Positions 2,898 through 51,898 of a stretch of DNA of 64,000 nucleotides are shown here, piece by piece. Both the position numbers and the translations under genes were made by a program. The stretch is from positions 769 to 64,768 of the forward strand of contig JAGCVL010000006.1 of NCBI GenBank assembly GCA_017962365.1, in the 5' to 3' direction. Numbering within the stretch: position 1 is the first letter of the stretch; every line of letters begins with the position of its first letter. The DNA comes from Candidatus Saccharimonadota bacterium. GTDB taxonomy: Bacteria > Patescibacteriota > Saccharimonadia > Saccharimonadales > Saccharimonadaceae. The notes below the pieces were generated by a model. That model saw nothing but the letters and a program-made list of their open reading frames with translations, had not been told where the DNA came from and made no database searches.

Positions 2898-3672
2898 CTG
2901 CGGCGTGGATGACGTGATCGAAAAGACAGGTAACGGTGAGTGGACCGACACCGCCTTTTTCCGGGGTGATGGCGGCGAGGTCAGTGCGATTTCTAACTTC
3001 TGCGGCGAGGTCGCCTTTTAAGACGCCTTTATCAGAGGCGGTACCGGCATCGATGACGACGGCGCCTGGGCGCACCATAGAATCAACAATCAGCCCCGGT
3101 ACGCCCGTTGCTGTGATGATTATATCATACTGATTAAGCTTTGTCAAGTCAGAGCCACGGTGAAAGAGAGTGACGTTGTAATTTGAATCTGTAAACATCT
3201 TGTAAAGTGGGGCGCCGACGAGTTTGCCGCGACCAACGATGGCGATCTTGGCGTTTTGTAATTTGATGTCGTAGCCGGCGAGGAGCCAGTTGATGGCGGT
3301 GGCGGTGGCGGAATCGTAATTTCCGTTTTCAGAAAGGCCGTCAACGTCTTTTTTGGGAGCGATGAGGCTTGTTATTTCGTCAGTCTTATCTTTATTGATA
3401 AGAGGAAGTTGGATGATGATGCCGTCGATGGTTGGGTCGCTATTTGCGTGGATAATCTCCTCTCGGAGCGCGTCCGGTTGAACGTAGACATCCACTACTT
3501 CAATGCCGATATCTTCGCCGTATTGCTTTTTTAAATTAACATATTTGGTAATCACTGGGTTGTCGGAATCGCGAAGGATGAGGAGCTTGGGCTTTTTGGA
3601 CATTTGACGGACTTGGGCGGCCTGGCGCTCCTTAATAAAACCTGCGAGTTCTCTACCGTCTAAGATTTTCAT
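2884..3672 (-). CDS. folD: Bifunctional methylenetetrahydrofolate dehydrogenase/cyclohydrolase
   Basis: The N-terminus MKILDGRELAGFIKERQ, the GRGKLVGAPL dinucleotide-binding motif, PGGVGPLT-like GGVGPLTV and the length all fit FolD. Confidence 0.9.
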   Translation of the reverse strand: MKILDGRELAGFIKERQAAQVRQMSKKPKLLILRDSDNPVITKYVNLKKQYGEDIGIEVVDVYVQPDALREEIIHANSDPTIDGIIIQLPLINKDKTDEITSLIAPKKDVDGLSENGNYDSATATAINWLLAGYDIKLQNAKIAIVGRGKLVGAPLYKMFTDSNYNVTLFHRGSDLTKLNQYDIIITATGVPGLIVDSMVRPGAVVIDAGTASDKGVLKGDLAAEVRNRTDLAAITPEKGGVGPLTVTCLFDHVIHAAAKND

Positions 3673-4763
3673 ATTTCGTTTGGTTCCTGCTCTAATTGAT
3701 AGCCAAATTTATCATGGACGGATTTTATGATTTCGGTGCGGGCAGCAGCAAGGTCGTTGTAACTTGTGGCAGATTCATTGATGAGGACGAGGGCGGCAGC
3801 GTCGCAGACGCGGATGCCGTGGAGGAGTTTACCTTTGAGGCCGCATTGTTCGATCAGCCAGCCGGAGTTGATTTTGAGGCCGTCGTGACCGTGGTAAACT
3901 GGGATATTTTTGGCTTCGGCGGCTTCGGCTTCATCTTTGGTGAGGTAGATGTTCTTGAAAAATGAGCCGGCGGAAGCTTTTTTAGCTGGGTCGGGGAGCT
4001 TGTCGCTCCTAATAATGGAGACGATGTTGCGAATACCGGCAGGGGAGAAGTCGGTACAGTGGTGCTCATCGATGTAGCGTTCGATAGAGTTGTAAAAAGG
4101 GCGGGACATAGTGCCTGGTTTTAACTCTAGAGTGATGGAAATGACGAAATATTGGCCTTTTTTGGTGGAATTTAAAATAGAACGGCGGTAGGAAAAGCCG
4201 AAATCGGATTTTTGCAGGGTTTTAAAAGATTTATTTTTGATGTCGTAAACTTCGGCGGAGAGGAACGTGTCGGCGAGTTCTTGGCCGTAGGCGCCGATGT
4301 TTTGGACTGGAGCAGCGCCGGCAGTGCCGGGGATTTTACTCAAGGCTTCGATGCCGGTGAGGCCACGCTCGGTCGTATAGGCTACGACGGCGTCCCAGTC
4401 GGTACCACCGAGGGCCGTTATTTGGACGGGTCCTGAGGGGAGCGGGTCCTGCCGGCCCTTGTCCTCCCCCATCTTCGCGAAGCTCAGCTGGGGGTCCCCC
4501 TCCAGGGCCGTCACCCGCTCCCCTGGGACGACATCCCGAATACCGGTCATGGTGTTGCGGATGATGACGCCACCAAAGCCGTCGTCTTTTGCGATGGTGT
4601 TGGCGCCGCCACCGAGGATGTAAAACGGGAGGTTTTTTTCGGCAACAAAATCAAAAGCAGGTGTGATATCGTCTAGTTTTTCGATATCGATGACATATTT
4701 TGCGGGTCCACCAAGACGCATCGTGGTGAGCTCGGATAAGGGTACATTTTCGCGAATTTTCAT
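3669..4763 (-). CDS. murB: UDP-N-acetylenolpyruvoylglucosamine reductase carrying a 31-codon GC-rich insertion
   Basis: Motifs MKIRENVPLSELTTMRLGGPA, ILGGGAN and IPGTAGAAPVQNIGAYGQE are present. There is an ATGA overlap with the folD start. Confidence 0.9.
   Translation of the reverse strand: MKIRENVPLSELTTMRLGGPAKYVIDIEKLDDITPAFDFVAEKNLPFYILGGGANTIAKDDGFGGVIIRNTMTGIRDVVPGERVTALEGDPQLSFAKMGEDKGRQDPLPSGPVQITALGGTDWDAVVAYTTERGLTGIEALSKIPGTAGAAPVQNIGAYGQELADTFLSAEVYDIKNKSFKTLQKSDFGFSYRRSILNSTKKGQYFVISITLELKPGTMSRPFYNSIERYIDEHHCTDFSPAGIRNIVSIIRSDKLPDPAKKASAGSFFKNIYLTKDEAEAAEAKNIPVYHGHDGLKINSGWLIEQCGLKGKLLHGIRVCDAAALVLINESATSYNDLAAARTEIIKSVHDKFGYQLEQEPNEI
4436..4524. repeat. GC-rich palindromic insertion element, in frame within murB (divergent family member)
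   Basis: Terminal 12-bp inverted repeat aggggagcgggt (4436-4447) / acccgctcccct (4513-4524). Central palindrome cttcgcgaag at 4473-4482. An 8-bp direct repeat agggccgt occurs at 4411-4418 and 4504-4511. Confidence 0.75.
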
Positions 4764-6700: not shown

Positions 6701-7466
6701 GATAAAGGATTTTAAAACGGCGAGCGGGGAGCTGGTTTTTGATTCTAAAGAGAATGATGATAAAAAAGTTGTCGGGCGTGGCAAGCTAATAATTACCGAG
6801 TTGAAGGCTGGCGTAAAGAATCCAGAACGAGTAAATGTATATATTAATGGGAAATTTTCCTTTTCGCTTGATATAGCGCAGGTGGTGGAATTTAAAATTA
6901 GGGTTGGTGCGGAAATTTCCGAAGAAAAATTGAGCGAGCTTAGGTCGGCATCGGATTTTGGGAAATTGTACCAGAGAACGCTTGAGTGGGTGCTTGTTCA
7001 GCCACGTTCAGTAAGGGAGGTGAGAGAATATCTTGCAAGAAAACTCAGGAATAGCCTTCGAGGACCTTCCGCGACTAACGAGGAGCGGTGGAGCGAAGTC
7101 CCGCCCGTAACGACGGGCCGGGACGAGCGCGTCCGAGGGGGCTATTCTGAGTTTTCTGACGAAATAATTTCACGTTTGCTTACTAAGGGATACCTGAATG
7201 ACAGGACTTTTGCGGAGTGGTATGTGGAAAATCGGTTTGTGAAGAAGGGGATTTCGAAAAAGAGATTAAAAATGGAGCTCATGAAGAAGGGGATATCGAA
7301 GGAAATTATCGACGAAGTGCTGGACGTGAGGAGTGACGAAGAAGAGATTGATAAAATGATTGCAAAAAAGCGAGCAAAATATGATGACGAAAAACTAATT
7401 CAATATCTGTGCCGGCAGGGTTTTTCGTACGATTTGGTGCGTGAAAAAGTGGCGGAGTTAAATTAA
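6687..7466 (+). CDS. recX: RecX-like regulatory protein with an extra N-terminal domain and a GC-rich in-frame insertion
   Basis: RecX-type helical repeats are present (VREVREYLARKL, ISRLLTKGYLNDRTFAEWYV, ELMKKGISKEIIDEVL, LIQYLCRQGFSYDLV). It lies in the recA neighbourhood. The start was moved to the ATG at 6687 (MDIYKIKD). Confidence 0.7.
   Translation: MDIYKIKDFKTASGELVFDSKENDDKKVVGRGKLIITELKAGVKNPERVNVYINGKFSFSLDIAQVVEFKIRVGAEISEEKLSELRSASDFGKLYQRTLEWVLVQPRSVREVREYLARKLRNSLRGPSATNEERWSEVPPVTTGRDERVRGGYSEFSDEIISRLLTKGYLNDRTFAEWYVENRFVKKGISKKRLKMELMKKGISKEIIDEVLDVRSDEEEIDKMIAKKRAKYDDEKLIQYLCRQGFSYDLVREKVAELN
7039..7158. repeat. GC-rich palindromic insertion element, in frame within recX
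   Basis: AT-rich inverted arms agaaaactcag(g)aatagcc (7039-7057) / ggctattctgagttttct (7141-7158). The GC-rich core contains the hairpin cccgt-aacg-acggg. The reverse complement of the core aligns with the der and truB copies. Confidence 0.8.
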
Positions 7467-8063: not shown

Positions 8064-8771
8064 TTATAGCACAGAAGCGTCTTTGATGTCGTATTTTCCA
8101 ACTTTGGTGCGGCGAAGAGCGGTGAGGTAGGCGCCGGTGCCGAGAGCTTTTCCGATATCTTCGGCGAGAGCTCTAATGTAAGTTCCGCTTGAGACTTCGC
8201 AACGGATTTTTAGTGTCGGATAGTTATATTCTAAAATTTCAATATTATAAATAGTGACTTCACGTGTCGGAGTTTCAAAATCTTTGCCAGCGCGAGCAAG
8301 CTTATAGGCTCTCTCGCCATTAATCTTTATGGCGCTGAAAGCTGGGACTTTTTGATTGATTTTACCAATAAAACTCTGGAGACAAGATTCAATTATATTC
8401 AGCTCGGGGCGCGTCGCTCGCTCCCGTCGCCACGGGGCTCGCGCGCTAATCCTCGCCTTGCCAGGCTCCGGACCCCCTTCGCTTGAATATAATTGAATCT
8501 CGCCTTCGGGGTCGCCGGTGGAGGAGGTGTAACCGAGTTTTAGCTCGGCGATGTATTCTTTGTCGAGCTTTAAGAATTCATTGGATTTTTTGGTCATTTT
8601 GCCAGTAAGGAGGATTAAAAGGCCGGTGGCGAAAGGATCGAGAGTGCCGGTGTGGCCGACTTTGACTTTGTGGCCGAGTTCGGTTTTTAAACGTCCGCGG
8701 ACTTTGGCGACGACGCCAAAGCTGGAAATGCCAGCGGGTTTATCAATAAGAATTATTTGATTTTCATCCAT
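8064..8771 (-). CDS. truB: tRNA pseudouridine(55) synthase carrying a GC-rich in-frame insertion
   Basis: LIDKPAGISSFGVV, the catalytic-Asp motif GHTGTLDPFATGLL and PAFSAIKINGERAYKLAR are present. The start was set at MDENQ (8771), because the longer ORF overlaps rpsO. Confidence 0.88.
   Translation of the reverse strand: MDENQIILIDKPAGISSFGVVAKVRGRLKTELGHKVKVGHTGTLDPFATGLLILLTGKMTKKSNEFLKLDKEYIAELKLGYTSSTGDPEGEIQLYSSEGGPEPGKARISARAPWRRERATRPELNIIESCLQSFIGKINQKVPAFSAIKINGERAYKLARAGKDFETPTREVTIYNIEILEYNYPTLKIRCEVSSGTYIRALAEDIGKALGTGAYLTALRRTKVGKYDIKDASVL
8385..8500. repeat. GC-rich palindromic insertion element, in frame within truB
   Basis: Perfect 17-bp inverted arms agattcaattatattca (8385-8401) / tgaatataattgaatct (8484-8500). 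The core gctcggggcgcgtc...cccgtcgccacggg...gcgctaat...gctccggacccccttcgc is about 80% identical to the der copy. Confidence 0.85.
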
Positions 8772-8777
8772 TGCATA

Positions 8778-8799
8778 ATTATAACAGATGTGATATAAT
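8778..8799. promoter_or_regulatory. Back-to-back extended -10 boxes for truB (minus strand, 8778-8786) and rpsO (plus strand, 8791-8799), each 6 nt from its ATG
   Basis: The minus strand reads TGTTATAAT-tatgca-ATG and the plus strand reads TGATATAAT-gaggca-ATG. Confidence 0.6.
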
Positions 8800-8805
8800 G
8801 AGGCA

Positions 8806-9072
8806 ATGATAACAAAAGAGAATAAAGATAAGGCTATTGCCAGCGTCGCTCGAGATAAGAAAGATGTTGGTTCTCCTGAAGTACAAGTGGCTATTCTTAC
8901 GGCTCGCATCAAAGAGGTGACTGAGCACGTTAAGAATAACAAACATGACTTTATGGCCAAAAGAGGTCTGATGCAGATGGTCGGGAAGCGCAAGAAGCTT
9001 CTCAAGTACCTCGAGACGACTGATTTTGAGCTATACAAGAAGACTGTCGCCAAGCTCGGACTTAGGAAATAG
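8806..9072 (+). CDS. rpsO: 30S ribosomal protein S15
   Basis: GSPEVQVAILTARIKEVTEHVKNNKHDFMAKRGLMQMVGKRKKLLKYL is typical of S15. Confidence 0.95.
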   Translation: MITKENKDKAIASVARDKKDVGSPEVQVAILTARIKEVTEHVKNNKHDFMAKRGLMQMVGKRKKLLKYLETTDFELYKKTVAKLGLRK

Positions 9073-9611: not shown

Positions 9612-11789
9612 ATGGAAATTATAAACCCAATGGGCAAGAAGACTGTCCAAGTGTCTACCGATTGGCTGGGGCGGAAATTGACACTCGAGGTAAACCGAGT
9701 CGGGTTTAGGACGACTTCGTCGGTCCTAGTAACCTATGGCGATACCGTAGTACTCGGGAGCGTAGTTGTAGGGACGAAGCCGGTAGTGCAGGACTTTTTT
9801 CCATTATCAATTGACTACGAAGAGAAGTATTATGCGGCCGGTAAGATTTCGTCGTCGCGATTTATTAAGCGCGAGGGGAAACCGGCAGATGAGGCGGTGC
9901 TCGTAGGGCGGCTAATTGACCGACCGATTCGGCCACTTTTCCCGAAGGGCTATCGGCAGGAAGTACAGGTGGTCTGCACGGTGCTTTCGATGGACCCGAA
10001 TTTTAGGCCAGACTGCGTAGCGATGATTGCGGCAAGTGCGGCTTTGATGAATGCTGGTGTGCCATTTGATGGACCAGTGGCGGGGATTCGGATTGGGCGA
10101 ATTGGCGGAGAATTTAAGGGATTCCTAAGCCATGAAGAGCGAGAAATTTCACCGATGGATCTTGTGGTAGCTTGCAAAGACGGCAAGATTATGATGGTGG
10201 AAGCTGGTATGAAAGAAGTACCAGAAGAGACGATTATTGAAGCGATGCACTGGGCGGTGAAAAATGTCCAGCCAGCACTAGATTTGCAGAGGGAGCTTGC
10301 CAAGCTAGTGGCGGCGCCGGAGCAGGAATATGAATTAGTCTTGCCGGACGAAGCAGTGATTGAAGAGGTTGCTAAGTGGACCGAGGGGAAGTTTGGTTCA
10401 AAGATTCGTGGCAACGTGATGGAACGCGCGCATATTTTGGATGATATTAAATATGCAATGCATGATGAGTTTGCGCTTTCTAAGGGTGAGGGTGAGACTG
10501 ACAACGAAAAAGTTGCGTGGTATGATGAGAATTTGCGTGATGTGTATGACCAGGCGTTTGAGCTTGCGGTGTTTAAAGAAGTGCGTCGCGGTATTGTAGA
10601 AGAGGGTATACGTCCAGATGGACGAAAGCTGAACGAGGTGAGGCCTTTGTCGTCGCAGGTGTCGATTTTGCCGCGAGTACACGGGTCGTCGCTCTTTACG
10701 CGTGGTGTGACGCAGGCGATGAATATTGTAACATTGGCACCTTTGTCGTATGCACAGGAAGTGGATACGATGGAAGTGACTGATGGTAAGAGGCGCTATA
10801 TGCATCACTACAATGCGCCGTCATATACGGTGGGTGAGCCAGGTCGGATTGGGTCGCCTGGGCGACGTGAGATTGGGCATGGCTATCTTGCAGAGCGCGC
10901 ACTTTTGCCAGTTTTGCCATCTGAAGAAGAGTTCCCTTATGCGATTCGCTCGGTGACTGAGATTATGTCGCAAAATGGTTCTACTTCAATGGCAGCGACC
11001 TGCTCGTCTTGTATGGCTTTGATGGATGCTGGTGTGCCTCTCAAGCGGCCAGTGTCTGGCGTGGCGATGGGCCTCATGGTAGATGTGCCAAAAGGTACGC
11101 CGATTGAAACTTCGGACATTGATAAGGCATATGTATTGACGGATCTTATGGATGCAGAAGATTTTGCAGGTGATATGGACTTTAAGGTGACTGGTACGAC
11201 CGAGGGTGTGACGGCGCTTCAAATGGATATGAAAGTTCATGGTCTTCCGGTAGAAATCATGGAAAAGGCTTTGAAACAGTCGCATGAAGGTAGAATGTTT
11301 ATTCTTGATCATATCCTAAGTGTGATTCCGGAGCCGAAGAAGCAGATTTCGGAATATGCGCCGCGGATTGAAAAGTTGATGATCAATCCAGATAAGATTG
11401 GTGCGGTGATCGGTAAGGGTGGTGAGACGATTAACAAGATTACTTCAGAAACTGGTGCAGAAGTAAATATTGAAGACGACGGCCTCGTGACGATTTCTGG
11501 TAATGACCCGGAGAAGATTGCGAGAGCGCTAGAGTGGGTAAAATCTTTGACCGAGGAACCAGAAGTTGGGAAAGTTTACACTGGTACAGTGGTAACAATT
11601 AAAGATTTCGGGGCATTTGTAAATATTATGCCAGGGATTGATGGAATGCTTCATATCTCGCAAATCGTAGAGGGGAAGAGGCTAAAGAGCGTAGAAGAAG
11701 TACTCCACGTGGGCGATAAAGTAAAGGTGCGCCTAGTCGCTATTGACCACGGAAAGTTGTCGCTCAGTATGATTGGGGTGGAGCAATAA
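9612..11789 (+). CDS. pnp: Polyribonucleotide nucleotidyltransferase (PNPase)
   Basis: It has two RNase PH domains, a KH motif (IGKGGETINKI) and an S1 motif (GKVYTGTVVTIKDFGAFV). The start was trimmed to MEIINPMGKK. Confidence 0.95.
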   Translation: MEIINPMGKKTVQVSTDWLGRKLTLEVNRVGFRTTSSVLVTYGDTVVLGSVVVGTKPVVQDFFPLSIDYEEKYYAAGKISSSRFIKREGKPADEAVLVGRLIDRPIRPLFPKGYRQEVQVVCTVLSMDPNFRPDCVAMIAASAALMNAGVPFDGPVAGIRIGRIGGEFKGFLSHEEREISPMDLVVACKDGKIMMVEAGMKEVPEETIIEAMHWAVKNVQPALDLQRELAKLVAAPEQEYELVLPDEAVIEEVAKWTEGKFGSKIRGNVMERAHILDDIKYAMHDEFALSKGEGETDNEKVAWYDENLRDVYDQAFELAVFKEVRRGIVEEGIRPDGRKLNEVRPLSSQVSILPRVHGSSLFTRGVTQAMNIVTLAPLSYAQEVDTMEVTDGKRRYMHHYNAPSYTVGEPGRIGSPGRREIGHGYLAERALLPVLPSEEEFPYAIRSVTEIMSQNGSTSMAATCSSCMALMDAGVPLKRPVSGVAMGLMVDVPKGTPIETSDIDKAYVLTDLMDAEDFAGDMDFKVTGTTEGVTALQMDMKVHGLPVEIMEKALKQSHEGRMFILDHILSVIPEPKKQISEYAPRIEKLMINPDKIGAVIGKGGETINKITSETGAEVNIEDDGLVTISGNDPEKIARALEWVKSLTEEPEVGKVYTGTVVTIKDFGAFVNIMPGIDGMLHISQIVEGKRLKSVEEVLHVGDKVKVRLVAIDHGKLSLSMIGVEQ

Positions 11790-14500: not shown

Positions 14501-14575
14501 TGGTCTGGGATACCAGGCTCGAACTGGCGACCTCACGCCCCCCAGGCGTGCGCGCTACCACTGCGCCAATCCCAG
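14501..14575 (-). tRNA. tRNA-Pro (anticodon GGG), CCA encoded
   Basis: Hand-folded cloverleaf: acceptor CTGGGAT/ATCCCAG, anticodon stem CACGC/GCGTG, loop CTGGGGG, T-loop TTCGAGC. Confidence 0.9.
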
Positions 14576-14584
14576 TCATTTTAG

Positions 14585-14660
14585 TGGTCTGGGTGACCTG
14601 ACTTGAACAGGCGACCTCGGCGTCCCGAACGCCGCGCGCTACCAACTGCGCCACACCCAG
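14585..14660 (-). tRNA. tRNA-Pro (anticodon CGG), CCA encoded
   Basis: Hand-folded cloverleaf: acceptor CTGGGTG/CACCCAG, anticodon stem CGGCG/CGCCG, loop TTCGGGA. Confidence 0.9.
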
Positions 14661-14667
14661 AAATAAA

Positions 14668-14743
14668 TGGTCTGGGTGACAGGACTTGAACCTGCGACCT
14701 CAACGTCCCAAACGTTGCGCGCTACCAACTGTGCTACACCCAG
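14668..14743 (-). tRNA. tRNA-Pro (anticodon UGG), CCA encoded
   Basis: Hand-folded cloverleaf: acceptor CTGGGTG/CACCCAG, anticodon stem CAACG/CGTTG, loop TTTGGGA. Confidence 0.9.
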
Positions 14744-39950: not shown

Positions 39951-40021
39951 ATTTTTCCCGCAAATTAATAGTTCTTATTTTTATTTTAGCATAAAAATAA
40001 AAGTTGTGTTATAATAAGCTT

Positions 40022-40960
40022 ATGGTCAAGAAAAAAATGCTGAAGGCGGTAATACTTAACAGTCTCGCAGTGGTTTTCTTGTTGCCTGCAATACATGGTG
40101 ATGGCGTCGTTTATGGCGTGTCTAGTGGTATAACTCGTCTAGATGGTACTTCTTTTAATGTTGATATAAGAGAATTTTTATCGGTGAATGTTTTGACGCC
40201 AGAGACATGGGCGAGTGGTACAATTAATGAGTTTCTCACGAACAAAGTGGGATTTAGCGTTCTTACCAATAATCCTGCCGGGTTTATTGCCACGATGCAG
40301 TCTTCTGCTATGTTGCCAAATCTGGTAAATCTGACGGACAGTACATATGTCATGCCTACGATTGCGACCGCGTCTGTCACCATAGATGATGCTACTGATA
40401 GTGGAGATGATTTTCCAGCAAATCGGTGGGGATACGGCATAGTAAATGGTAATGCCGCTGCGCCATTAACTTACTATCCGATGGTAGGCAGCAATGATTA
40501 TCCGATAGAAATTGCAAGCTCAAATGTTGCCACAAATGAAATTACTAAAGATATCTATTTTTCTGCTAAGGCTGATGGTACGGTGGCGTCCGGCACTTAT
40601 GCAAATAGTGTGATTATTAGTGTTGTGTCTGGGGTTGCTCCTGATCCGATTGATGATCCGATCGACGAGCCGATTATTGATCCAGGCGAACCGATTATCC
40701 CTGGGCCTGGGCCTGATATACCTATTGTTATGAGCGTCAACCCTCAGCCGGGCTTGATGTCGGTCACGACTTCGTCGTCATATGCAAAACCGGCTGGCGT
40801 AAATGATACTACTATATCTAATGTCAATGAGGGGGTGCCACTTGCTGCTGGGATAGCTGTGGCAGCGGGTGTTTCCGCTGCGGCAGGTGTGATATTCTTT
40901 GTTATTGCCAAACGTCGTCGCAAAGATGAAGACGATGATGATGGTACGGAAGATTATTAG
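40022..40960 (+). CDS. Surface protein with a C-terminal membrane anchor and a charged tail; its N-terminal domain is related to that of 28950-30653
   Basis: It has a signal peptide and a proline-rich stalk (PDPIDDPIDEPIIDPGEPIIPGPGPDIP). The C-terminus is GVPLAAGIAVAAGVSAAAGVIFFVIAKRRRKDEDDDD. Confidence 0.55.
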   Translation: MVKKKMLKAVILNSLAVVFLLPAIHGDGVVYGVSSGITRLDGTSFNVDIREFLSVNVLTPETWASGTINEFLTNKVGFSVLTNNPAGFIATMQSSAMLPNLVNLTDSTYVMPTIATASVTIDDATDSGDDFPANRWGYGIVNGNAAAPLTYYPMVGSNDYPIEIASSNVATNEITKDIYFSAKADGTVASGTYANSVIISVVSGVAPDPIDDPIDEPIIDPGEPIIPGPGPDIPIVMSVNPQPGLMSVTTSSSYAKPAGVNDTTISNVNEGVPLAAGIAVAAGVSAAAGVIFFVIAKRRRKDEDDDDGTEDY

Positions 40961-41022: not shown

Positions 41023-42447
41023 ATGAAAAAATTACCAATAGTAGCATTGATTGGCCAGACGAATGCGGGGAAATCTTCGCTTCTTAATCGGATGGCGCGG
41101 AAAAATATTGCGATTGTAGCGAGGGAAGAGGGTACGACGCGCGATAACGTGATGGCGACGATCGATGATGCTTTTATTTTGGTAGATACGGCTGGTCTTA
41201 AAGACCCAACGGATGATTTTGAGGCGTCGATTCAGGATCAGATTCAGGATGCGATAGAAGCGGCGGATGTGATATTGGTGGCACTAGATTCTACGAAGTA
41301 TTTCGATCATCGTGATAAGAAAATTACAAAAGATGCTTTGAAATCTGGGAAACCAGTGTTTTTGGTTCTTAATAAATGTGATCTCGGCGAGTCGTTGCCG
41401 ATTGAGGAGTTTAGGGCTCTTGGTATAGCGCCAGAAAATATTTTTTATACTTCGGCAACAACGGGTGTCGGGATTAAGGAACTCAAAGCTGGGGTTCTGG
41501 CAGATATTTCTCGCTCGGGGGCGCGTCCGGCCGGCCCGTCGCCACGGGCGGCCGGCGCTAATACTCGCGCTGCCGCGCTCCGTACCCCCCTTCGCCAAGA
41601 AATATCTACCACTCCCGCTCTGAAGATTGCTTTGATTGGGCGGCCGAATGTGGGGAAGTCGTCATTATTTAATACGCTTGGCAAAAAGCAGCAGGCGATT
41701 GTGTCGAGTCGGCAAGGTACGACGCGGGATGTCAATCGGGTGACGGTGAAATATAAAGGTCGGGAGATTGAGATTTTGGATACAGCTGGACTTCGGAAAC
41801 CAGGCAAACGTGAGGTGGGGATTGAAAAGTTTTCAGCAATACGGACACTTGCGGCGATTGAGGAAGCGGATATTTGTTGCCTTTTGGTGGATTCGACCGA
41901 GCCACATTCGAAACTTGACCAGTCGCTCGCGGGACAAATTGTGGAAGCCGGGAAGGGAATTATGATGATTGTGACGAAGGCGGATTTACTTGAAAATGCC
42001 GAACCGACGAATTTTTATGGTGAAGAGAATATTGGCAATCGGACGGCGGCGGATTTCTTGCTAGACGCCCTCGAAAAGGATTATGATTTCTTGCCGTATG
42101 CGCCAGTGATACTTACAAGCTCGGAGACCGGGATGAATGCGACAAGGATTTTTGAAATGGCGCTTGAGATTGACGCGGCGCGGCATATGGAAGTAAAGAC
42201 TTCGGAGCTAAATAAGATTTTGAATGATGCGATTGTTGCTCACGCGCCGGCAGGTCTAAAAGATACTCGTCCGAAGCCGAAATATATCGTGCAGACCGAT
42301 ACTTGTCCACCGTGGTTTGTGGTGCATGGACACGAACTTGGGCTTCTTCACTGGTCGTGGAAGCGGTATTTGGAGCGAAAAATTCGGGAAAAGTACCCAT
42401 TTATTGGTACGCCAATCATGTTTTCATACCGTTCAGATGATAAATAG
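41023..42447 (+). CDS. der: Ribosome-associated GTPase Der/EngA with a GC-rich insertion in the inter-G-domain linker
   Basis: It has two G domains (GQTNAGKSS / DTAG; GRPNVGKSS / DTAG) and a KH-like C-terminus. Confidence 0.92.
   Translation: MKKLPIVALIGQTNAGKSSLLNRMARKNIAIVAREEGTTRDNVMATIDDAFILVDTAGLKDPTDDFEASIQDQIQDAIEAADVILVALDSTKYFDHRDKKITKDALKSGKPVFLVLNKCDLGESLPIEEFRALGIAPENIFYTSATTGVGIKELKAGVLADISRSGARPAGPSPRAAGANTRAAALRTPLRQEISTTPALKIALIGRPNVGKSSLFNTLGKKQQAIVSSRQGTTRDVNRVTVKYKGREIEILDTAGLRKPGKREVGIEKFSAIRTLAAIEEADICCLLVDSTEPHSKLDQSLAGQIVEAGKGIMMIVTKADLLENAEPTNFYGEENIGNRTAADFLLDALEKDYDFLPYAPVILTSSETGMNATRIFEMALEIDAARHMEVKTSELNKILNDAIVAHAPAGLKDTRPKPKYIVQTDTCPPWFVVHGHELGLLHWSWKRYLERKIREKYPFIGTPIMFSYRSDDK
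41498..41611. repeat. GC-rich palindromic insertion element, in frame within der (best-preserved copy)
   Basis: Inverted arms tggcagatatttct (41498-41511) / agaaatatctacca (41598-41611). The 87-nt core is about 80% G+C by hand count. Internal hairpins are ccggccggcccgt-cgcc-acgggcggccgg and gcgc-taatactc-gcgc. Confidence 0.85.
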
Positions 42448-49206: not shown

Positions 49207-50043
49207 ATGACTGCAAAAATTACGAAAGCGATTATTCCAGTAGCTGGATGGGGGACGAGAAGACTTCCGATTACGAAGGTGATTGAAAAATCAATGCTTC
49301 CGGTAGGAAACCGACCTTTGGTGGATTATTCGGTGCAGGAGCTGATAAAAGCCGGCGTGAAAGATATTTATATGGTGGTGTCCAATGTGGAGCCGTGCCA
49401 AGTGAGGGCGTTTTATCAGGACAATTTGGCGCTCAATCGGTATTTGGTAGATAGGGGTAAAGAAGATAAGCTCGAGAAGGCAAAGACTTTGCCGGATGAT
49501 GTGAGAATGCATTATGTGGCGCAGGATCCATCGGCAAAATATGGTACGGCGGTGCCGATTGCAATGGTGGTGGAAGAATTTAAGATTGACGAACCGGTAT
49601 TGGTGTTTATGGGTGATGATTTTATTTGGAACCCAGGTGGTGAGTCGGCGGCGGAGGCGCTAGTTAAGGCTTCTGGCGGTACAGAGGCGGCGATTTTGGG
49701 CGTAGAAATTCCAAAATCTGAAGTAGAAAAATATGGCGTGTTGTCGGTAGAAGACGGTAAACTTTCTTCGGTAGTGGAAAAGCCGAAGCCGGAGAATGCG
49801 CCGTCAAATTTGATTAACGTATCAAAGTATGTAATGACGCCAGATCTTTTGAAGCGGATTGTGAAATATGTTAATGAGAATGATTTTGGCCCAACGGATC
49901 AAGAGTATATGGTGACGGACCCGATTGATGAATTCATTCGCGATGGTGGCGTGATGAAAGTGGCTGCTACGTCTGGGGAATACCTAGACGGTGGTTCAGT
50001 TGAGGGTTGGGTGCATGCAAATGAAGTTGTTTGCAAACAATAG
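49207..50043 (+). CDS. galU: UTP--glucose-1-phosphate uridylyltransferase-like nucleotidyltransferase
   Basis: AIIPVAGWGTRRLPITK...MLPV is present. The start is set at MTAKITK. Confidence 0.72.
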   Translation: MTAKITKAIIPVAGWGTRRLPITKVIEKSMLPVGNRPLVDYSVQELIKAGVKDIYMVVSNVEPCQVRAFYQDNLALNRYLVDRGKEDKLEKAKTLPDDVRMHYVAQDPSAKYGTAVPIAMVVEEFKIDEPVLVFMGDDFIWNPGGESAAEALVKASGGTEAAILGVEIPKSEVEKYGVLSVEDGKLSSVVEKPKPENAPSNLINVSKYVMTPDLLKRIVKYVNENDFGPTDQEYMVTDPIDEFIRDGGVMKVAATSGEYLDGGSVEGWVHANEVVCKQ

Positions 50044-50062
50044 TAAATAAAAAAATACAAAC

Positions 50063-50166
50063 GGTTCGCTCACGTCTGATTAAAAAAATAATTTCAGGCA
50101 GGGCTGTGCTGGTATTTCAGTACCATGCTCGCCCTGTGAAATTATTTTTTTAATCTGGTTCGCTCA
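50063..50166. mobile_element. MITE-like element: a ~78-bp near-perfect hairpin (50078-50155) flanked by the 10-bp direct repeat ggttcgctca. It probably also serves as a bidirectional terminator.
   Basis: The direct repeat is at 50063-50072 and 50157-50166. The arms gattaaaaaaataatttca (50078-50096) and tgaaattatttttttaatc (50137-50155) are perfect complements. Confidence 0.5.
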
Positions 50167-50179
50167 AAGTTTATATTTT

Positions 50180-51898
50180 TTATTTACTATTACTTTCTGC
50201 AAGTTCTTTTGCCATGCGTTCGAGTTTCCTAAAGTCGGTTTTGTTGGCGCGAGTTAGGGGGAGCTCGTCGAGGAAGACAACTTTCCTAGGGATCTCGTAA
50301 TCTTTTAAAGTGATTCTGCGTTTGCCAATATAGAAAGGCTCGGTGGCGTCTTTGGCGATTTTGCGACGAGTATCGTTGTTTTTGCCAATGCCGTCGTTTA
50401 GGACGACGAAAGCGCAGGAGACCCAGCCGAGTTTTTTATCTGGCATTTTGACGACATAGCAAGACTTGACGATTTCGTTTCTGGCGACTGCGGCGCGGAC
50501 GACCTCGTAGTAGACTTTAGCGGGGATAGTATTGATAAAGAAAGTAGCGCGACCAACAAGGGTAATGAAGCCGGTCTCGGAAACCGAGGCGAGGTCGCCG
50601 GTCGTGATGAAGCGTTTTTTCTTGATATATTTGAATTTTTCTTCGGTGAGTTCGGGGCGGTTAAAATAGCGAGAAAGGGTGTGTTTGCCGGAAACATGGA
50701 GGATGCCGGTCTGACCAAAGCTGAGTTCTTTGCCGGTTTCTGGGTCTATGACGGCGACATGTGCGCCGGGGACGACTCGTCCTACTGTGTCTGGGTGATA
50801 GGTGGAGCCGACAGCAACAGTGATGGAGCCGAGACATTCGCCGACGCCATAGCCGTTGCACATTTTAACGGTGGCACCGTGTTGCTTAAAGAATTCAGTA
50901 ATTTCTTCGGAGGCTTGTTTTTCAAGACGTTCGCCGCCAGAGATGCACATTTTGACACTTGAAAGATTTTGATCTTCTGGTAGGACTTTGGGGAGTAATT
51001 CATAGAAAAGCGGGACGGTTTGGAGGACACTAATGTCTTTACTTAGATAATATGGAAAATTATCTTCGGAGATGTCTGGCGTAAGAATGACAGAGCTACC
51101 ACCGATGATAGGCGTCATGACGGAAGTCCAAAAGCCGTAAGGGCAGTCGAATTTGACAAAGGAAAACCAGGTTTTGATGTTTTTGTCCCACATTTTAATG
51201 CCAGAGGCGGCTTTGGAGAAAAGAGCGGCGGCGATGAGGGCTTTGTTGGTGAAAACCATAGGCTTTGGACCGGAGGTGGAGCCAGAAGTGAAAGTGATAA
51301 TAGCTTCGTTGTTGCCACCAAAAATATTTTTGGGAATGTGGCCTTTAAATTTCTCGGCGATTTTAGTGATAGGTTGTTTGCCAAGATGAATGTGGTCGAG
51401 AGCGGAAGTCTCAATAGCTTCGGTCTGAGTCTCATCTGGGTCACCGTGGTCTACAAAATAGCCGTCGAGATTGATGACGTTTTCGATGGACTTAGCGTCT
51501 TTTTTTAGCTCCTTGATGCGCTTGTCATTGTATTTATAGGTGACGACGAGTTTAGAATTGAATTCTTCAATGTAATGTAAGAGGACATCGCGAGGAGTTT
51601 TCTCGTCAAGAAAGCTAACGATGGCGCCGATTTTGTTGGCGGCGAGGAAAATCAGGACGTTTTCATACATGCTACGACCGGTGGCGACCAGGATGATGTC
51701 GCCTTTTTTAATGCTGAGCGCGAGAAAGGCTTTTGCAAGGATTTTGCGGTCGTGTTTTAACTCTTTTCTGGTGAAATCGAATTCTTTCTGATTAACGACT
51801 GTATTGTTCCAGTGGCGGAAACTTGATAGATTATAAAGCGCTGAAATACTTAGTGGTGGAACGATGGGGTCTTTTTTTTGATTCTTGATTTTTAGCAT
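50180..51898 (-). CDS. AMP-dependent synthetase/ligase (acyl-CoA synthetase-like)
   Basis: It has the AMP-binding motif FTSGSTSGPKP, TGD and a C-terminal lysine region. Confidence 0.75.
   Translation of the reverse strand: MLKIKNQKKDPIVPPLSISALYNLSSFRHWNNTVVNQKEFDFTRKELKHDRKILAKAFLALSIKKGDIILVATGRSMYENVLIFLAANKIGAIVSFLDEKTPRDVLLHYIEEFNSKLVVTYKYNDKRIKELKKDAKSIENVINLDGYFVDHGDPDETQTEAIETSALDHIHLGKQPITKIAEKFKGHIPKNIFGGNNEAIITFTSGSTSGPKPMVFTNKALIAAALFSKAASGIKMWDKNIKTWFSFVKFDCPYGFWTSVMTPIIGGSSVILTPDISEDNFPYYLSKDISVLQTVPLFYELLPKVLPEDQNLSSVKMCISGGERLEKQASEEITEFFKQHGATVKMCNGYGVGECLGSITVAVGSTYHPDTVGRVVPGAHVAVIDPETGKELSFGQTGILHVSGKHTLSRYFNRPELTEEKFKYIKKKRFITTGDLASVSETGFITLVGRATFFINTIPAKVYYEVVRAAVARNEIVKSCYVVKMPDKKLGWVSCAFVVLNDGIGKNNDTRRKIAKDATEPFYIGKRRITLKDYEIPRKVVFLDELPLTRANKTDFRKLERMAKELAESNSK

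Follow-up and report, generated by a model that had tools for sequence, protein, structure and literature searches.

A family of G+C-rich palindromic elements carried in frame by conserved genes of Saccharibacteria

Results

Related elements in der, truB and recX

The 64,000-nt stretch studied here, called the window throughout, comes from contig JAGCVL010000006.1 of Candidatus Saccharibacteria and has a G+C content of 45%. Three of its conserved genes, der, truB and recX, each carry in frame a short, G+C-rich palindromic element of one repeat family (family 1), and a motif scan of the window found exactly these three copies together with a palindromic element in murB that is assigned to another family (Table 1). 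The original prediction, made from the letters of the window alone, had counted four to five copies of a single family; three of these stand, whereas the fourth, at about 4419-4511 in murB, belongs to the other family. Two further G+C-rich stretches, at 46.5 kb and 58.2 kb, gave no match to the der or truB element (blastn), to the family profile or to the core motifs, and no flanking inverted repeat was reported at either.

The open reading frame (ORF) of der, 41023-42447, stays open across its element, which is read as SRSGARPAGPSPRAAGANTRAAALRTPLRQ. At 80.2% G+C, the der core has the composition predicted for it, although it is 86 nt long rather than 87; the remainder of the gene has 46.6% G+C. 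The two arms that enclose the core are complementary at 13/14 positions in der and form a perfect 17-bp stem in truB. From arm to arm, the der, truB and recX copies measure 114, 116 and 116 nt, a length that need not be a multiple of three because the arms overlie host codons. No target-site duplication was found around the der copy when the sequence was inspected by eye.

The homology proposed between the cores holds under alignment statistics. Blastn aligns the truB core with that of der at 77% identity over 83 nt (E = 2e-12) and the reverse complement of recX with der at 74.5% identity over 51 nt (E = 8e-4); global core identities among the three copies are 77%, 63% and 60%. The recX copy has CCCGTAACGACGGG at the tip of its second hairpin (hairpin B) and a first hairpin (hairpin A) unlike that of the der and truB copies. 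An nhmmer profile of 110 copies recovered the der and truB copies and missed this divergent one, and the copies in the window were therefore located by motif.

Anatomy and predicted fold

Family-1 units are 100-125 nt long from arm to arm. Their core of about 65-85 nt has 70-80% G+C and forms two covarying hairpins closed by a stem, the outer 12-22 bp of which are complementary within each copy and unrelated between loci. An alignment of 110 copies contains a conserved block of about 65 nt, whose anatomy we describe on the better-folding, or "strong", strand. The 5' strand of the closing helix (P1) has the consensus (U)UCGAGGGG. It is followed by hairpin A, with a 3-bp helix, an internal loop (GGA/GA), a 4-bp helix and, at its end, the invariant tetraloop GGCA; by a variable linker of 4-5 nt; by hairpin B, with about 15 bp, the tip CCCGUGGCGACGGG and then an invariant GACG; and by the 3' strand of P1, CCCCGAGAA. 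Conservation stops at the P1 stem (about GGGG/CCCC plus CGAG), with the locus-specific arms beyond. Compensatory changes occur at 11 pairs of hairpins A and B in the same alignment, and the unpaired nucleotides (the GGCA loop, the GGA/GA internal loop and GACG) are invariant. GACG, which is CGTC on the weak strand, stands beside hairpin B in 110/110 copies; the copy filter demanded a nearby G[CT]GTC, but it removed only chance matches in G+C-rich genomes.

The der, truB and recX copies all show the long outer stem enclosing two internal hairpins that had been predicted, and they fold far better than shuffled sequences (RNA fold z-scores of -4.2 to -8.5 relative to dinucleotide-shuffled controls). 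In 97/110 copies the strong strand is the more stable of the two (mean difference 8.9 kcal/mol). The arm mismatches read on it are more often G.U than A.C (89 versus 47, p = 4e-4), and it carries tandem G.A motifs (CGAG/CGAG and GGA/GA). It is the minus strand in the der copy, which is therefore antisense to der, and the sense strand of the host gene in both the truB and the recX copy.

Distribution of family 1

A 25-nt core pattern, CCCGTCGCCACGGGNNNNNNGCGCT, was scanned against one genome per prokaryotic species and matched at least 118 loci. About 105 of those listed are from Saccharibacteria/Candidatus Nanosyncoccus, mostly from ruminant-gut metagenome-assembled genomes, and these hold the same core between arms that differ locus by locus. 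The remaining dozen or so listed are chance matches in G+C-rich taxa, without the element. Among the matches listed, family 1 as an element is found only in Saccharibacteria/Nanosyncoccus, with more than 100 copies. The objection anticipated with the prediction, that scanning might find no further copies, thus fails, as the scan added more than 100. The named homologs of Der, TruB and RecX are likewise from Candidatus Saccharibacteria.

Rfam, searched with the window and eight loci at the gathering score and also at E up to 10, returned nothing on the elements, ribozymes and introns included; only tRNAs passed the gathering score, and the best match on an element had E = 1.3. A tRNA/tmRNA search returned ordinary tRNAs only. 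A phage collection held no match to the element, and IMG/VR viral contigs gave one, which lies in G+C-rich DNA and is due to chance. Full-text literature searches turned up no account of such elements in Saccharibacteria/TM7.

Core identity averages 85.3% between orthologous sites, 85.0% between different sites of the same genome and 81.4% between unrelated pairs, and cores at least 97% identical make up 6%, 8% and 0.3% of these pairs, respectively. The cores include several discrete subtypes that reappear at other loci and in other genomes, and the UBA1235 genome has three identical cores at different sites. Such near-identical cores at separate sites of one genome may be signs of ongoing copying.

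Host genes and translation

Long ORFs contain 93 of 120 copies (at least 78%), with der, truB, recX and folD among the host genes, and genic copies are always in frame and stop-free, as had been claimed for the copies in conserved genes. The other 27 copies lie mostly at gene 5' ends or in intergenic DNA, and no split gene was found among them. Relative to the host gene, the strong strand reads in the sense direction in 43 cases and in the antisense direction in 50. At the truB site, the tip of hairpin B is read in all six frames across lineages (PVATG, RRHG, PSPR, PVTTG, RGNG, PWRR), from which it follows that the DNA is conserved and the peptide incidental. Given the use of every one of the six frames and the absence of split genes, the copies are evidently translated through in whichever frame and orientation they lie, mostly in permissive loops and linkers, with no conservation of the peptide sequence. 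The reading of one site in six frames excludes a protein-level role. The inserts in linkers and loops encode peptides rich in Pro, Gly, Arg and Ala that are probably disordered; SRSGARPAGPSPR and EGGPEPGK are among those encoded.

Arms, inversions and scars at orthologous sites

In Der, TruB and RecX, the corresponding position is occupied by an element in most relatives. These elements lie in either orientation, belong to other core subtypes, have suffered internal deletions ("scars") or bear secondary insertions at the tip of hairpin B; truB orthologs have the element in all six frames, as a deletion scar, or not at all. In distant orthologs of Der, TruB and FolD the segment is missing and the loops are of native length, and the possibility of an ancestral linker at these positions, raised with the prediction, fails on this comparison. 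Filled sites exceed empty ones by 29 and 25 amino acids in der, about the core alone, and by 22 amino acids in truB, somewhat below the 82-nt core; the arms thus contribute nothing to the excess. In distant lineages that have short loops, native residues align with both arms. The closing stem is largely host sequence: its arms overlie native codons on both sides, differ per locus and co-evolve in each lineage.

The complementarity of the arms bears out their predicted locus specificity. It averages 13.3/18 within a copy, 9.5/18 against the opposite arm of an ortholog from another species and 8.1/18 between unrelated copies (p = 8e-37). At two loci (L031 and L037) the left arm consists of homologous host codons and the right arm tracks it in each species, complementarity being kept despite the divergence of the host codons. 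In a further relative (L119), whose flanks match the window at 94% identity, an identical der core lies inverted between arms that differ from those of the window by a compensatory A>G / T>C change. Flipped cores were seen in 40/96 orthologous pairs; the core inverts between its arms on short time scales.

Two relatives (L124 and L127), whose contigs are about 96% identical to the window over 11-14 kb and 97-99% identical to each other, provide closer comparisons. The truB element of L124 is identical to that of the window. At recX (window 6990-7200, L124 about 10300-10520), in genomes 96% identical, L124 has a diverged allele in place of the element and of some 100 nt of the coding sequence that follows it; the core of this allele is of a different subtype and runs the opposite way between the same outer arms, aaaactca/tgagtttt. 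A simple flip was ruled out here in view of the different core subtype and the diverged flanks, and the replacement looks like allelic recombination within the population.

Secondary insertions of about 35-80 nt lie exactly at the tip of hairpin B in a recX copy (L125:1001-1876), where the insertion sits between a duplicated CGAC, and in a truB copy (L126:1001-1759), as well as in proteins P0019, P0029, P0075, P0093, P0136, P0148, P0150, P0292 and P0312. Because they fall at this precise point, the tip appears to be a favored place for additional insertions. Scars, in which the loop is near native length and element-derived codons are left behind, were found at the truB site (L141, L147, L135, L136) and in RecX (P0285, P0297) and TruB (P0142, P0201) proteins. 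Apparently empty sites can therefore be secondary.

A recent insertion in folD

L127 carries a family-1 copy in folD that is absent from both the window and L124. The empty allele has the same length in this region as FolD of nine other Saccharibacteria and is taken as native because all other FolD orthologs share that length. It reads gaagta GTGGATGTCTAC gttcaaccg GACGCGCTCCGAGAGGAGATTATCCACGCAAAT, whereas the filled allele reads gaagtg TTGGATGTTTGC GTGGATGTCTAC, then 66 nt of core (TCGAGGAG, hairpin A and hairpin B) in place of the 9 nt of host sequence gttcaaccg, and then GACGCGCTCCGAGAGGAGATCATCCACGCAAAT.

The 3' end of the inserted element (consensus GACGCGCCCCGAGAG) is formed by the native host codons D-A-L-R-E, and its P1 is GGAG/CTCC, fitted to the host. 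This native 15-mer is the sole non-element match to the element end, with at most two mismatches, in the 64-kb window, where 0.06 would be expected. A host inverted repeat, GTGGAT(G)...ATCCAC, of 6-7 bp in the empty allele has become a perfect 12-bp arm pair in L127 through a one-sided 12-nt tandem duplication. Neither a target-site duplication nor a direct repeat flanks the insertion.

A second family in murB

The murB element corresponds to a 93-nt segment (31 codons) bounded by an 8-bp direct repeat, AGGGCCGT (4411-4418 and 4504-4511), that is absent from L124 and L127, both about 96% identical to the window, as the result of an insertion or a deletion. In either case the native sequence at the junction equals one element end. 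The adjoining host codons (window 4411-4530, minus strand) show four clustered substitutions, gggacgac versus agggatac. Elements with the same ends (family 2) also occur at two unrelated loci, L083 and L056.

Some family-1 cores lie within an outer motif, GGGTCCTG-arm-core-arm-(C)CACCC (L001, L014, L032, L056, L077, L105, L110, L111 and L118). A known structured RNA or a murB coding motif was considered for it and ruled out, the loci being non-orthologous and in part intergenic; for the same reason we regard GGGTCCTG...CCACCC as a second-family shell. The presence of a family-1 core within a family-2 shell suggests nesting, or core exchange between the families.

Other features of the window

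The ORF upstream of der (40004-40960) encodes a probable surface protein with an N-terminal hydrophobic segment, Pro/Asp/Ile-rich repeats, a C-terminal hydrophobic anchor and then an acidic tail. On the minus strand at 14501-14743, a stretch of 243 nt holds three tRNA-Pro genes in tandem (GGG, CGG and UGG). An A+T-rich nested palindrome, apparently intergenic, occupies 50039-50191, with perfect 16-bp outer arms, aatagtaaataaaaaa / ttttttatttactatt, and an inner hairpin, ttaaaaaaataatttcaggcagggc...gccctgtgaaattatttttttaa. This palindrome bears no relation to the G+C-rich families.

Table 1. Palindromic elements and the folD target site, in coordinates of the window
Feature	Position	Strand	Remarks
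Family-1 element in der	41498..41611	-	Linker between the two GTPase domains; arms 41498-41511 (tggcagatatttct) and 41598-41611 (agaaatatctacca); core 41512-41597
Family-1 element in truB	8385..8500	-	Arms 8385-8401 and 8484-8500 (agattcaattatattca / tgaatataattgaatct); core 8402-8483; gene truB 8064-9053, minus strand
Family-1 element in recX	7040..7155	+	Divergent subtype; arms 7040-7056 and 7140-7155 (aaaactcaggaatagcc / ggctattctgagtttt); core 7057-7139
Family-2 palindromic element in murB	4419..4511		Ends GGGTCCTGCCGG...CCGTCACCC; own core of about 44 nt
Empty target (pseudo-site) in folD	3460..3474	-	GACGCGCTCCGAGAG; codons D-A-L-R-E of a native helix; mimics the family-1 3' end; the L127 copy lies exactly here
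Left half of the host inverted repeat bracketing the folD pseudo-site	3484..3495 (approximate)	-	GTGGATG within GTGGATGTCTAC; from the alignment of the window, L124 and L127

Discussion

Origin and spread of family 1

Family 1 is a selfish repeat family resembling the Rickettsia palindromic elements (RPEs): it is translated through by its host genes, and its stem of host sequence evolves in concert and lets the core flip. Template switching between inverted repeats is known to homogenize arms, to extend them in one step and to invert the spacer reversibly (PMC8604942), and arm homogenization, arm extension and spacer inversion all separate close relatives in family 1. The locus-specific arms had been read as a hint of an unusual insertion mechanism. 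They are not a transposase signature; since they overlie native residues and co-evolve, they are best explained by template switching between inverted repeats.

On balance we favor, as somewhat more likely than not, a lineage-specific, non-autonomous, RPE-like selfish cassette that is copied in by microhomology-anchored template switching, the same process that builds the arms and flips the core. It is plausible that a donor copy would be replicated into a new site by way of either template switching or gene conversion, that this copying would be anchored by microhomology between the host site and the element ends, and that it would preferentially take place within a pre-existing short host inverted repeat. 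Later template switching between the arms would then extend and homogenize them, one flank being overwritten by the complement of the other, and would also flip the core, while selection would retain only in-frame, stop-free outcomes. A bolder formulation, which we offer tentatively and with some doubt, is that family 1 represents a transposase-independent mobile module of two DNA hairpins that enters end-mimicking host sites in short inverted repeats by microhomology-anchored template switching, recruits host codons into its stem and flips.

Several observations weigh against copying of this kind. Only one insertion, that in folD, is polarized, and its donor was not found among the loci compared (best match 91%); for these reasons the rule of a homology anchor rests on one clear case, together with the ambiguous murB event and a weak overlap at truB (native CCnGAr versus element CCCCGAG). 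The old insertions in der, truB and recX are not traceable back to their birth. Published evidence is thinner for ectopic long-distance template switching than for the local kind between inverted repeats. Finally, the invariant unpaired nucleotides, the invariant CGTC tag and the strand asymmetry would be expected if a protein, for instance a transposase of HUH type such as the tyrosine transposases associated with repetitive extragenic palindromic sequences (REPs), known as RAYTs, recognizes a single-stranded hairpin.

That expectation belongs to a classical non-autonomous transposon, of REP type or a miniature inverted-repeat transposable element (MITE), mobilized in trans, for example by an IS200/IS605-family (RAYT-like) tyrosine transposase acting on a CGTC-tagged single-stranded hairpin. 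Target choice would be guided by base pairing with the element, and the locus-specific arms and the flips would be secondary to the strong hairpin. CGTC beside hairpin B is as invariant as in CGTC-tagged REPs and RPEs (PMC3733652), the loops and bulges are conserved where the stems covary, the core and arms are strand-asymmetric, the core subtypes that recur across loci and genomes are discrete, and the family-2 polymorphism in murB is bounded by an 8-bp direct repeat, all of which such a transposon would accommodate. It accords poorly with the folD insertion, however, which came without a flanking duplication, displaced 9 nt of host DNA and takes some 15 nt of native sequence for an element end, and with the lack of terminal inverted repeats common to the copies. 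The gene tables of the loci reached by protein look-up (genome pieces of 8-20 kb) list no transposase beside any copy, no systematic search for one having been made, and the CGTC REPs are themselves without a known dedicated transposase (PMC3733652). We consider a transposon of this kind unlikely, yet a serious competitor.

A functional structured RNA on the strong strand, whether a regulatory or protein-binding module or an element excised from the mRNA with the arms as a processing stem, is far less probable. The GNRA (GGCA) tetraloop, the tandem G.A motifs, the covarying stems, the G.U bias of the arms and fold z-scores down to -8.5 are all what such an RNA would show, but covariation in a DNA palindrome cannot tell RNA from DNA, and no Rfam family, ribozymes and introns included, matches. 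The near-equal numbers of sense and antisense copies (43 and 50) and the flips between close relatives count against it, as do genic copies that are always in frame and stop-free with no gene split, neither of which would be needed if the RNA were excised. Random orientation, a core that flips and strictly preserved reading frames thus disfavor a role in the host mRNA, and the RNA-level function floated in the original prediction is unlikely on these grounds and on the use of six frames. Ancestral or adaptive protein linkers, with a nucleotide similarity that is incidental or compositional, would account for the position of the segments in linkers and loops and for their Pro/Gly/Arg/Ala-rich, probably disordered peptides. 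They would not account for nucleotide homology that links unrelated genes (E = 2e-12) and extends over more than 100 loci, for unrelated peptides read from the same DNA in six frames at one site, or for the missing segment in distant orthologs. With presence/absence polymorphism at 96-99% genome identity added to the six-frame usage, this explanation is effectively refuted.

Implications

To our knowledge, in-frame palindromic repeats have for 25 years counted as an oddity of Rickettsia and a small number of other lineages, with no established mechanism of spread. Family 1 is an independent and abundant family of this kind in the Candidate Phyla Radiation (CPR), and places such elements in a new phylum. 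The metagenome data offer natural before-and-after states, namely a fresh insertion, presence/absence differences, exact flips, scars and nested insertions, which make the question of mechanism testable. If copying driven by homology and hairpins proves true, it could apply equally to the RPEs and to the CGTC REPs, which are likewise without a transposase. Should the transposase-independent reading hold, family 1 would represent a distinct mode of DNA mobility and a generator of loop-peptide variation in essential proteins of the CPR, whose genomes are among the smallest known.

At a practical level, the elements inflate and diversify the marker proteins Der, TruB, RecX, MurB and FolD, with effects on alignments, phylogenies, gene calling and structure prediction for Saccharibacteria, and their polymorphism is usable as a source of strain-level markers.

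Comparison with known systems

The RPEs, put forward from the start as the closest precedent, remain so. Like family 1, they are short palindromic repeats (about 100-150 bp) of a host-associated bacterium with a reduced genome, lie in frame in functional genes, where they are thought to be translated, and occupy loops that tolerate the extra peptide. Family 1 shows the features by which RPEs are recognized, a repeated, foldable palindromic unit of about 100-150 bp with in-frame copies in conserved genes. The truB gene is reportedly also an RPE host in R. conorii, and we know of no mobilizing enzyme for either group. The differences lie in the setting, a CPR/Patescibacteria host and a core of about 80% G+C in a 45% genome, and in the construction of the element. 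The ends of an RPE are borne by the element itself, whereas the outer stem of family 1 is locus-specific, co-evolving host sequence, with no palindromic ends common to all copies (8.1/18 is background). In addition, the family-1 core flips at the same site between relatives, and the fresh insertion has end-homology to its target. Given the composition and the phylum, sequence homology to the RPE families is unlikely. Some RPE families do carry a CGTC tag (PMC3733652).

In this last respect family 1 also resembles the CGTC-tagged REPs (Di Nocera et al. 2013, PMC3733652). In these, an invariant CGTC directly precedes, on the 5' side, an imperfect stem-loop (in our case hairpin B, read on the weak strand), stem sequences are heterogeneous with a conserved structure, some copies are intragenic and no dedicated transposase is known. 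Those REPs are mostly extragenic, often dimeric, single hairpins of 20-40 nt, with 8-9 bp stems, a 4-5 nt loop, A/T at the first stem positions and a CCA tail (PMC3733652); family 1 is instead a three-helix unit of about 85 nt, with some 15 pairs in hairpin B and at least 78% of its copies intragenic.

Inverted repeats shaped by template switching (the Ripley model; PMC8604942, PMC5941160) share with family 1 the homogenization, the one-step extension, the reversible inversion of the spacer and the multi-nucleotide changes in coding DNA. The coding palindromes of Nematomorpha mitochondria are reportedly similar in that both palindrome arms encode protein (PMC6649704). The spacer of the template-switch systems is a few nucleotides of local sequence, whereas that of family 1 is a conserved cassette of about 65-85 nt. 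Because this cassette is common to more than 100 loci, an extra step of copying between loci is needed.

Among mobile repeats, the GC clusters and the palindromic GC-rich elements of fungal mitochondria are G+C-rich and hairpin-forming in an A+T-richer genome, sometimes lie in frame within protein genes and encode no transposase. They resemble family 1 in composition, folding and occasional in-frame position, and differ from it in being organellar and eukaryotic and in their short, defined target duplications; we know of no report of locus-specific, co-evolving arms for them. In bacterial MITEs (Correia/NEMIS, ERIC, RUP, Nezha), which are mostly intergenic, target-site duplications go together with terminal inverted repeats common to the whole family. 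Family 1 is, like them, small, non-coding, repeated and foldable, but has no family-wide terminal inverted repeats, and no duplication accompanies the polarized insertion in folD. Family 1 shares the in-frame lifestyle of the RPEs and the CGTC tag of the REPs and of some RPE families, its closest known counterparts, while failing the structural definitions of RPEs, REPs and MITEs alike.

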